Origin: Escherichia coli | GTDB taxonomy: Bacteria > Pseudomonadota > Gammaproteobacteria > Enterobacterales > Enterobacteriaceae | Direction: 5' to 3' (one strand) | Assembly (NCBI RefSeq): GCF_048403405.1 | Contig: NZ_CP183130.1 | DNA length: 16,403 bases | Shown: positions 12,233-14,217 of the stretch, in pieces | Layout of the letters: each line of letters begins with the position of its first letter | Position numbering within the stretch: the stretch's first letter is position 1 | Position numbers and translations under genes: made by a program | The notes under the pieces: generated by a model | Database searches by the model: none | What the model was told of the DNA's origin: nothing | The model's input: the letters and a program-made list of their open reading frames with translations, nothing else

Positions 12233-12837
12233 TATGGTCTTCTGAAACTTTTTTCAGCCTTCCGGCACCGGCAAACTGCCGTCGTTTCTGCCATACGTCC
12301 TGAATGCCTTATGGCGCATTCTGCCGTTTTCTGGCTTTCCGGACCGCGAGGATCCCAAAAGCCACTGAATAACGATCCGCAATATACCCCTTTTCCACCG
12401 CTTTGAAAAGCCGACACGATTTCTCAGAGTTACAGTTGCCCTCTTTAACCCCCTAAAAAGCGTCGTTTTTTTGAACTCTGTCAAAAAAATGAACAATTTC
12501 AGCAAACGATCTTTTATGCTGCTTTTTTCTTCTTTTCCAGTAGAAGAGATCGCCGAATTTTTTTAAACGATCTAATATCCCGCACACAACATCAAATACA
12601 GAATAATATTCTGTCTTATCAAATATAACGATCTATTCAACTGCTTATCTTCGCTCTTGCCACAGATACATCCTTATGTGATATATTTTCCAGCCATTAA
12701 TCCTGTTTGCAGGAGTTGTCGGTTTTCGCCCGCCTCGAAACCGTCCACAAGGCTTACAAGAGTGCGTAAATCATGTGCCTGTCAGAACTGCAGGCCAGGC
12801 TGAACGTGGGTCAGCCGCTGTTTCCGACACATGCTTT

Positions 12838-13413
12838 ATGTATTCGCCGTTCACAACAACATCGAAGCCCCCTGCGGGGATCGATTTTCGCGGAGCGTTC
12901 CGGATTTTGAATATCAGTGAATTACATCAACGCAACTGGTATCTGGCACAGTACATCCCTGCCGGCAAAAACCGCGAACATCTCTTTTCCTGGCTTTCCG
13001 AACAACACGTCCTTCCCTGGACACCCCTGATACTGAAAAAGGTCCGCCGCACGGATAAAGTCTGTGGTTACCGTCGACATATACACGCCGTGTTTCCCGG
13101 TTACTTTTTCCTGAAAGCAGACCCCGAAAGCCACAGCTTCACTCACCTTCGCCGTCACAGTGCCTTTCTGGACTTCGTGAAAATGGCCGGTGAAATCAAA
13201 ACCGTCAGGGAGGATATCGTTCAGTCTTTGATGAAAGTGTACCCGGATCCTGCGCTCAATCCGGCAGCCAGGGAGGAGCTGGATGCTGCCTCCACCCTCT
13301 GGCTGACAAAAGCGCGTTACCAGTACCTCCTCCGGCTTGATGCACAGCCTCTGCCGGAGTCGAGGATCGCCCTGCTCCTGCACCTGGTATCTGATGACGG
13401 AGCGTTGACATGA
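12838..13413 (+). CDS. NusG/RfaH-family paralog (plasmid ActX/TraB-like transcription antiterminator); start uncertain
   Basis: ORF 12775..13413 (GTG, no RBS). The NGN-like region starts at NWYLAQY (about aa 54 of the long ORF), and FPGYFFLKADPESHSFTHLRRHSAFLDFV parallels NusG FPGYVLVQM...HLVRSVPRVMGF. Likely starts are ATG 12838 or TTG 12907 (GGAG upstream; would give ~168 aa, similar to RfaH). Confidence 0.7.
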   Translation: MYSPFTTTSKPPAGIDFRGAFRILNISELHQRNWYLAQYIPAGKNREHLFSWLSEQHVLPWTPLILKKVRRTDKVCGYRRHIHAVFPGYFFLKADPESHSFTHLRRHSAFLDFVKMAGEIKTVREDIVQSLMKVYPDPALNPAAREELDAASTLWLTKARYQYLLRLDAQPLPESRIALLLHLVSDDGALT

Positions 13414-13442
13414 AAATTGCTGTCTTAATTTGACTGACTTTT

Positions 13443-13469
13443 CCCGGCCTTTATGGCCGGGATTTTTTT
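13443..13469 (+). terminator. Intrinsic terminator immediately downstream of the NusG-paralog gene
   Basis: CCCGGCC-TTTAT-GGCCGGG perfect 7-bp stem (13443-13461) followed by ATTTTTTT (13462-13469). Confidence 0.65.
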
Positions 13470-13486
13470 CCCTTCTGTTTCCACAA

Positions 13487-13542
13487 TGCCCGGCACCGGT
13501 GACACCTGAGGGTGTACGGAGAGCGGCTGTCGGGCATTTTTT
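13487..13542 (+). terminator. Second terminator/attenuator-like structure directly before the RBS of the next gene
   Basis: TGCCCG (13487-13492) pairs with CGGGCA (13531-13536), followed by TTTTTT (13537-13542). The 38-nt interior contains palindromes CACCGGTG and ACACC...GGTGT. Weaker than the first hairpin. Confidence 0.4.
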
Positions 13543-13554
13543 CAGGACGCCTTT

Positions 13555-14217
13555 ATGACCATTCTATCCCAGGAAAACCCTGTCATTCTGTTACTGGAGA
13601 ATATGCTCGAAGCACTCTCCACCGCCCCGGACAACATAAACAACGAACGGCGTCGCCGGCGTTACCTGCTGAACTGGCTTGACACTGCCCGTCAGATGCG
13701 CGAGTTCAGAGGAATGGCTGAAGAGTTCACTACCCTGCGAAAACTGCTGGCCACCAATTCAGACATACCGGTAGCAAACACCCTGAAATCACTGCTGGAA
13801 AGTGGCAATAACGCAGCATTATACGACCTGTACCGCTTCCGCTCGGCTCTTGCCACGTGCAGGAGTCTGGGATGGCAGATTGGCACGTGCGCATGGAATG
13901 ACCAGTTACTGAGTGAGACACTTTCCCGCGCACAGACCGGGAAACGTCATATCCTGCAGCTGAACAGCACCGGGGACACCTTTTCCACCACGGGCAGAAT
14001 GATCAGACCGGTGGCATTTTCATTAATCCATCCGGCCACCATCAACACGTCTGAGGTTGAAGAGATATTCCGGGATGAAGGTTTTATGCTCGCACACGGG
14101 CGCGAATGCAGTCTGAACGGCAGCGGCAGAAATATGCTGTCACGCATTCTTCATGTGGGCCATTCAGGTTTAGCGGAAGAGGAATGGGGCATGGACAACA
14201 GTCTGCTTTTACACTGA
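13555..14217 (+). CDS. Hypothetical 220-aa protein downstream of the NusG paralog (possible transfer-region regulator by position)
   Basis: Intact ORF with AGGACG upstream of the ATG. No recognisable motifs. The guess at function is by position only. Confidence 0.55.
   Translation: MTILSQENPVILLLENMLEALSTAPDNINNERRRRRYLLNWLDTARQMREFRGMAEEFTTLRKLLATNSDIPVANTLKSLLESGNNAALYDLYRFRSALATCRSLGWQIGTCAWNDQLLSETLSRAQTGKRHILQLNSTGDTFSTTGRMIRPVAFSLIHPATINTSEVEEIFRDEGFMLAHGRECSLNGSGRNMLSRILHVGHSGLAEEEWGMDNSLLLH

Follow-up and report, generated by a model that had tools for sequence, protein, structure and literature searches.

A conserved terminator behind traB and a structured leader before it suggest a self-gated antitermination module on I-complex conjugative plasmids

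The traB-traC region and the TraB protein

We analyzed a 16,403-nucleotide (nt) stretch of Escherichia coli DNA (contig NZ_CP183130.1 of RefSeq assembly GCF_048403405.1, hereafter the window), in which a gene for a NusG/RfaH paralog is followed by terminator-like hairpins and a second gene. The window belongs to a conjugative plasmid of the I-complex, type IncB/O/K/Z. A 1.9-kb segment spanning the paralog gene has ≥90% identity to 551 plasmid records, most of them from Escherichia or Shigella, where the annotation reads "NusG family protein" and then traC. On a plasmid that is 99.8% identical, a replication initiator gene on the minus strand is followed by the NusG-family gene, traC, a pair of membrane-protein genes, the type IV pilus genes (pil) and traE to traY, with the transfer array traC-pil-tra co-directional over about 40 kb. 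Plasmid typing gave IncI1/B/O or IncK2/Z, MOBP and MPF_I. Because of these plasmid matches, the rep-traB-traC-pil context and the replicon RNA signals upstream, sequence comparison identifies the gene as traB of the traABCD regulatory region (first described in R64), a known NusG-family positive regulator of transfer. Its product is 64% identical to IncI1 TraB at the amino acid level.

The requirement for traB and traC is established genetically. In pESI, TraB is needed for pil transcription and conjugation, and its loss lowers pilV, pilS and pilT mRNA about four-fold and abolishes transfer (PMC5013300). On an IncB/O/K/Z plasmid traBC are needed for conjugation (PMC10286972), and traC was essential in studies by transposon-directed insertion site sequencing (TraDIS) and transposon sequencing (TnSeq) (PMC10286972; PMC4288162). 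In pESBL, expression of traB is activated by TraA. R64 TraB has been named a homologue of PrfaH, and I-complex plasmids hold, by one count, 45% of all plasmid-borne NusG-family genes (PMC11880322).

For comparison we used 25 loci (the window and 24 fetched loci) from about 13 lineages, with TraB identity down to about 45%. They come from Escherichia, Salmonella, Enterobacter, Mixta, Pectobacterium, Yersinia, Klebsiella, Citrobacter, Edwardsiella, Erwinia, Pluralibacter and Cedecea. The traB-traC synteny is kept in every locus, and the pil genes come next in most. The features of the window are listed in Table 1.

Table 1. Features of the traB-traC region, in coordinates of the window
Feature	Coordinates	Strand	Description
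Possible traB promoter	12657-12685	+	TTGCCA, 17 nt, GATATA; inference from sequence
Leader stem-loop SL1	12720-12743	+	apical loop CCCGCCT here, CCGCCAA in the family
Long-range leader RNA helix (predicted)	12760-12845	+	12760-12781 pairs with 12824-12845; RNAalifold
3' block of the traB leader, candidate TraB loading site	12866-12899	+	conserved; hairpin CCCC-TGC-GGGG (12869-12879), GGGGATCGATTT (12876-12887), box GCGGAGCGT (12890-12898)
traB coding sequence	12907-13413	+	probable TTG start, 168 amino acids; RfaH/PrfaH-like NusG paralog; from homologue starts, RefSeq coding sequences, IncI1 identity and synteny
NGN domain of TraB	12934-13230	+	PF02357; AlphaFold pLDDT 81-91; Foldseek top matches RfaH 5ond and PrfaH 9ik0
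C-terminal domain of TraB	13210-13392	+	predicted all-helical, without KOW signature; from the model and the profile alignment to RfaH 2oug
T1, canonical intrinsic terminator directly 3' of traB	13442-13469	+	hairpin and U7, -17.3 kcal/mol; conserved position
T2, long imperfect hairpin and U6 abutting the traC ribosome-binding site	13485-13543	+	fold of -26.7 kcal/mol; conserved in IncB/O/K/Z
traC, next gene, essential co-regulator	13555-14217	+	annotated traC; no recognisable family

The initial annotation had described the gene as an open reading frame at 12775-13413 with NGN-like motifs in its product. Frame and motifs are present, while the proposed start, GTG 12775, lies 132 nt too far upstream. 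Homologues are about 169 amino acids long with the N-terminus MNIE.L..WYLAQY, in close relatives RefSeq places the start of the coding sequence at the position matching TTG 12907, and the segment 12775-12906 is not consistently coding, its frame shifting between close relatives at a run of five or six C (C5/C6). GTG 12775 was rejected on these grounds, and TTG 12907 is very probably the real start of traB. The run (12868-12872), which is C5 in the window and in NZ_CP146680 and C6 in most relatives, sits in the 5' arm of a small leader hairpin. It toggles the frame of the upstream ATG 12773. One state is a 45-codon upstream open reading frame whose stop codon overlaps, in UUGA, with the TTG at which traB starts; the other is an in-frame extension that would give a TraB of 213 amino acids.

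The product had been read as a specialised NusG paralog, and this reading held up. Pfam found the NusG/NGN domain (PF02357) at residues 54-152 of the long open reading frame product (E = 8.7e-5). A profile built from 41 family members had PrfaH of IncX3 as its best match in the PDB (9ik0, 1e-13) and aligned to E. coli RfaH (2oug, 7e-7) over both domains, residues 9-166 onto 2-151. The AlphaFold model of TraB had an overall pLDDT (predicted local distance difference test score) of 76, and its top Foldseek matches were autoinhibited RfaH (5ond with ops DNA, 8pfg and 2oug) and PrfaH 9ik0 over 156-160 columns, with the C-terminal domain modelled at a pLDDT of just 55-72. The closest relatives by sequence and by predicted fold are thus RfaH and PrfaH. 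In the model the C-terminal domain forms four helices (102-111, 119-127, 135-146 and 153-162). No Pfam match to a KOW domain was found in TraB, even at E ≤ 10, and besides the near-invariant C-terminal G168 the domain has no conserved glycine in the 41-sequence alignment. Of an NGN/KOW architecture, the NGN fold was therefore recovered, whereas the KOW signature is absent and the domain in its place is predicted to be helical.

Against the RfaH equivalog models TIGR01955 and NF006534, TraB scored 38.3 and 37.9 bits, aligned over both domains and below the cut-offs of 124 and 144.5; against the LoaP model NF033641 it reached 22 bits, with a cut-off of 125. The TraB residues at the positions of the RfaH contacts to ops, the RfaH recruitment site, are invariant in the family (W29, for example), and an R-x-H-S-A-F loop stands where RfaH has A-T-R-G-V. 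Because of the equivalog scores below cut-off and the different residues at these positions, we conclude from sequence and predicted fold that TraB is an RfaH-like specialised paralog with its own specificity, a relative of RfaH rather than an ortholog. Searches of TraB and TraC against Pfam and NCBIfam found no DNA-binding domain in either protein.

Terminator, spacer and leader

The strong intrinsic terminator that had been called right behind traB, T1, was confirmed by its fold and its U7 tract, and its placement is kept across the family. The stem (13442-13462) has 8 base pairs, 7 of them G-C, and a 5-nt loop, and the U7 tract follows at 13463-13469. T1 was the top match of the terminator scan and is the strongest terminator site of the region; it acts in one direction, the minus strand having no T-run. 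A canonical terminator lies 1-82 nt past traB in 22 of the 25 loci, made from about ten unrelated stem sequences. The other three are two Yersinia ruckeri loci with a weaker hairpin and one locus that is cut. Further, a sigma-70-like promoter (at least 9/12 consensus matches) was found in none of 15 traB-traC spacers by a consensus scan, which would miss activator-dependent promoters.

The second hairpin and U-run next to the traC ribosome-binding site (T2) are also real, but terminator-like in the IncB/O/K/Z lineage alone; elsewhere the hairpin at this position has no U-tract. In the window, the hairpin (13485-13537) leads into U6 (13538-13543); next come the ribosome-binding site AGGA and, at 13555, the ATG of traC. 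The folding of the spacer (150 nt) is more stable than that of all 200 shuffles (z = -2.9). Within IncB/O/K/Z, T2 is conserved, one pair changing from G.U to G-C and the U-tract from U6 to U8. Most lineages instead carry a near-perfect long helix of 15 base pairs, CCGGCAATGGTGTCTG pairing with CAGACACCATTGCCGG (L005:3096-3247, L010:2063-2243 and eight other loci). This helix is 95% paired, shows compensatory changes at 8 of its 15 pairs, and forms the base of a three-way structure about 110 nt long, possibly a processing or RNase III site. T2 looks like a shortened derivative of this element, and it may not primarily be a terminator.

The leader upstream of traB is conserved, with a pairwise identity of 0.50-0.62 versus 0.34-0.36 at traB third codon positions. 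An apparent conserved upstream peptide (M.LSELQ) was rejected because its ATG is ATA in several lineages, and this loss places the conservation at the level of nucleotides and structure. RNAalifold predicts 19 pairs for the long-range helix, 13 of them with compensatory changes. In the three-helix structure of the leader, 91% of cells pair, versus 34-45% when the partners are slid. The SL1 motif folds into an apical loop in 12 of 12 lineages, on different stems (per-sequence folds); in one fixed register it is 55% paired. Neither the leader nor the spacer matched an Rfam family.

The 3' block of the leader is a candidate TraB loading site, judged by its conservation and position. In alignments of 9-19 lineages, the single-stranded segment GGGGATCGRTTY hardly varies and leads into GCGGAGCGT or GCGAGAGCRT; the columns of GGAT and GCG show little or no variation. 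In 24 of 25 loci, 8-17 nt separate the beginning of the box from the start codon downstream; in the window the box lies 8 nt upstream of the TTG. On a 92-kb relative plasmid the extended block GGGGATCGRTTY occurs once. Both the family consensus GGCGGAGCGT and the box of the window correspond to ops (GGCGGTAGCGT) without its T6. The initial annotation had found no ops-like site of the GGCGGTAG type nearby and had named no recognition element. The first point stood: there is no match at 0-1 mismatch, and matches at 2 mismatches are at chance level, the canonical ops GGCGGTAGnnTG giving 13 matches at ≤2 mismatches versus 10.6 expected. The second changed, as the search for a conserved motif upstream of the gene in related plasmids yielded the candidate block at 12866-12899 in traB's own leader.

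Several further observations concern the leader. The sequence GCGGAGCGTT occurs at ≤1 mismatch four times in the window versus 0.9 expected, and nine times versus 3.3 expected in half of the relative plasmid. In this lineage only, the 3' end of traB holds a near-copy of the box, ACGGAGCGTT (13397-13406), which precedes T1 by 36 nt. Such copies were rejected as extra loading sites, the extended block being unique and the copy at 13397-13406 lineage-specific. The best-conserved block of the leader, GGGGATCGRTTY, includes a GATC (Dam methylation) site at 12879-12882 that 17 of 18 lineages retain. The 3' arm of the long-range helix can, in several lineages, form a local hairpin instead (GTATTCGG...CCGGATAC), a hint of a switch. 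Pairing of the SL1 loop with the ribosome-binding site (the box), and an anti-Shine-Dalgarno CUCC loop, were both inconsistent across lineages when inspected by eye and were discarded. The complement of the SL1 loop (12729-12735 in the window) reads GGCGG; in some lineages (L010 and L017, near -170 relative to the start of traB) the complete ops core GGCGGTAG is present there. This core is on the template strand for traB transcription, so RfaH is not expected to use it in the traB direction. The possible traB promoter was missed by the consensus scan; its -35 hexamer is conserved within the lineage, and three other lineages have better-matching promoters at the corresponding place (-218 to -237).

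Directly upstream of traB lies the replicon control region (12084-12232), with a PK-repZ pseudoknot on the minus strand (Rfam, 189 bits). The plus strand of the same interval matches a CopA-like Inc antisense RNA below threshold (41.6 bits versus a gathering score of 60), which would be transcribed toward traB and may end at a small hairpin at 12269-12281. Downstream, TraC is an orphan-fold partner of the NusG paralog: searches for Pfam and NCBIfam matches and for PDB fold neighbours found none, and its model (pLDDT 87) has a five-helix N-terminal domain and an alpha/beta C-terminal domain. The downstream array has few further plus-strand sites resembling intrinsic terminators. In the relative plasmid CP077245, plus-strand terminator-like hairpins lie within the co-directional transfer array at 22765-22785 and 32002-32019, one at the flotillin/pilI junction and the other just 3' of the prepilin gene; these are possible extra checkpoints for an antiterminator.

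A proposed antitermination model and its alternatives

We propose that traB-T1-traC is best read as a self-gated antitermination module of the PrfaH kind, a reading to which we give a probability of about 0.55. Transcription would start about 200-250 nt upstream of traB and pass through the conserved structured leader, where TraB would be loaded onto the elongating RNA polymerase, likeliest at 12866-12899. The TraB-modified polymerase would resist T1 (and in this lineage T2), allowing expression of traC, pil and tra, and would also resist later polarity signals. Without TraB, most transcripts would end at T1. Because the order is regulator gene, terminator, targets, the arrangement would act as a positive-feedback gate that keeps the transfer genes off until TraB accumulates. 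We infer the loading in the leader, the read-through of T1 and T2, and this feedback logic.

That terminators in the path of the downstream operon fit processive antitermination had been proposed from the window alone. The conserved placement of T1, the spacers in which no promoter was found, and the PrfaH precedent agree with this, whereas the second terminator is lineage-specific. PrfaH of IncX3 binds the non-template strand between -42 and -25 relative to the ATG of its own gene (we checked the sequence of this site) and relieves a stem-loop block before virB1 while promoter activity is unchanged (PMC11880322). It raised expression of a fusion from the prfaH promoter to virB1, and the effect was lost when the stem-loop before virB1 was disrupted (PMC11880322).

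A number of observations weigh against the model. The role of the block at 12866-12899 is ambiguous, as its box overlaps the ribosome-binding site, with GGAG where that site is expected, and its conservation may be partly translational. Its match to ops, 9 of 12 positions plus the T6 deletion, is by our estimate within chance for a 200-nt leader. Homology of TraB leaders to the mapped PrfaH site was rejected, local alignments scoring like those of dinucleotide shuffles (p = 0.16-1.0), and the resemblance between the two (CGGGG.TC ... CGAGAGCG) is purely visual. RfaH itself mainly counters Rho-dependent termination and acts on intrinsic terminators modestly. Further, H20, R23 and K10 of RfaH are presumably its contacts to ops; in the profile alignment H20 and R23 fall on W29 and E32 of TraB, and K10 on a non-lysine position. 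RfaH-style refolding of the TraB C-terminal domain is uncertain, because the domain is modelled at low confidence and without the glycine-rich KOW pattern. The consensus scan of the spacers is blind to activator-dependent promoters, and the searchable literature holds no report of these terminators, of read-through or of a TraB cis site for I-complex plasmids.

A tentative alternative, on balance unlikely, is that the leader is a post-transcriptional control element that responds to a small RNA (sRNA), an antisense RNA, Hfq or a ProQ/FinO-type protein, or that gates translation by its structure, with TraB loaded elsewhere or without a specific site. The traJ leader of the F plasmid is under post-transcriptional control of such a kind. 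The helices of the traB leader covary and tolerate G.U pairs as expected for RNA, the box overlaps the ribosome-binding site, and a related plasmid encodes a ProQ/FinO family protein; additionally, Poidevin et al. mention preliminary effects of Hfq on traA and traBC expression. On the other side, the invariant single-stranded blocks (GGATCGRTTY and GCG.AGC) lie outside the helices, the PrfaH site is at an equivalent position, and the scan detected no antisense promoter. Such control would also be compatible with loading in the same leader.

We further regard it as doubtful that T1 (with T2) is a set of constitutive partial terminators that fix how much traB mRNA is made relative to downstream mRNA and shield the transfer genes from transcription that comes from upstream, while TraB acts elsewhere by blocking Rho- and NusG-dependent polarity and silencing along pil-tra. 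A terminator after a regulator gene is a common device for stoichiometry, the main documented role of RfaH is anti-Rho (PMC11880322), and the long co-directional array contains few other plus-strand sites of the intrinsic type. However, the IncX3 stem-loop before virB1 is precisely the target of PrfaH (PMC11880322), and a strong terminator (7-8 G-C-rich pairs and U7) conserved before an apparently promoterless essential gene is explained more easily by regulated read-through. Both this explanation and the post-transcriptional one are compatible with parts of the antitermination model.

A bolder variant, which we hold to be improbable, is that TraB-family factors are recruited through a structured RNA leader of about 190 nt, not through a short DNA hairpin of the ops type, and that TraB and TraC form a two-protein switch that opens the conserved terminator, with the spacer helix as a processing site or second checkpoint. 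The parts of the leader would then be the SL1 loop CCGCCAA, the long-range helix of 19 base pairs, the 3' hairpin, GGATCGRTTY and GCGGAGCG. If true, an RfaH-like factor whose C-terminal domain has lost the KOW signature would be loaded under the guidance of RNA on enterobacterial resistance plasmids.

It is very unlikely that TraB and TraC instead activate initiation at pil/tra promoters, with T1 ending a monocistronic traB transcript and traC expressed from a non-consensus, activator-dependent spacer promoter: such a promoter would escape the scan and TraC is an essential partner of unassigned fold, but the 85 nt between T1 and the traC ATG are mostly T2 hairpin, neither protein has a DNA-binding domain that Pfam or NCBIfam could find, and to our knowledge all characterised NGN-domain proteins act on elongating polymerase. 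The idea goes with the older term "positive regulators" and with literature that gives traBC as regulators without a mechanism (e.g., PMC10286972), while PrfaH left promoter activity unchanged (PMC11880322).

The antitermination model matters as I-complex plasmids (IncI1, IncB/O, IncK and IncZ) are major carriers of extended-spectrum beta-lactamase (ESBL) genes and other resistance genes. With traB and traC essential for their transfer, it offers a concrete and cheaply testable account of how transfer is switched on. T1, the block at 12866-12899 and the RxHSAF loop of TraB would be targets for mutagenesis or for inhibition of conjugation. If the model is true, the PrfaH paradigm extends from IncX to the largest group of such plasmids.

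Comparison with known systems

The gene, its family assignment and its essential role as a transfer activator were already known, as was the antitermination logic from IncX. Our comparison adds a near-universal terminator behind traB, spacers that appear promoterless, two covarying predicted RNA structures and a unique candidate loading block.

One of the closest systems is IncI1 TraB (R64, pESBL and pESI), which is orthologous to TraB of the window, has the same traB-terminator-traC-pil order and is known to be needed for pil transcription and conjugation. In contrast to IncI1, the plasmid of the window has no LuxR-type traA upstream, and its leader abuts the replicon. Its spacer has 141 nt with T1 and T2, whereas that of IncI1 has about 253 nt with T1 and the large three-way structure. 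The TTG start codon of traB is a further difference.

PrfaH (ActX) of IncX is likewise a plasmid-encoded RfaH-like factor heading a transfer operon. The cis site of PrfaH is part of its own 5' untranslated region, and the candidate block of TraB likewise falls within the traB leader; PrfaH relieves a stem-loop block ahead of its first target gene, and T1 stands ahead of traC. However, Foldseek identity between PrfaH and TraB is just 22%, and the PrfaH site TCGGGGTCATCCGAGTCG has no significant similarity to TraB leaders. T1 is a canonical terminator, whereas the stem-loop that forms the IncX3 block has no obvious U-tract. The essential partner gene of TraB, traC, does not occur in IncX.

With E. 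coli RfaH, TraB shares an NGN domain and a helical C-terminal domain, predicted to be packed as in autoinhibited RfaH (C-terminal pLDDT 55-72), and both head long, horizontally acquired operons. Unlike RfaH, TraB is plasmid-encoded and in cis to its target, reaches 38 bits on the equivalogs (124/144.5), has no GGCGGTAGnnTG site, and carries other residues at what we take to be the ops contacts.

LoaP of Bacillus, described by Goodson and colleagues in 2017, is reportedly recruited through a hairpin of the leader RNA and reads through intrinsic terminators. TraB resembles it in principle, with intrinsic terminators inside the target operon and a structured 5' leader. It comes from a different phylum and scores 22 bits versus a cut-off of 125.

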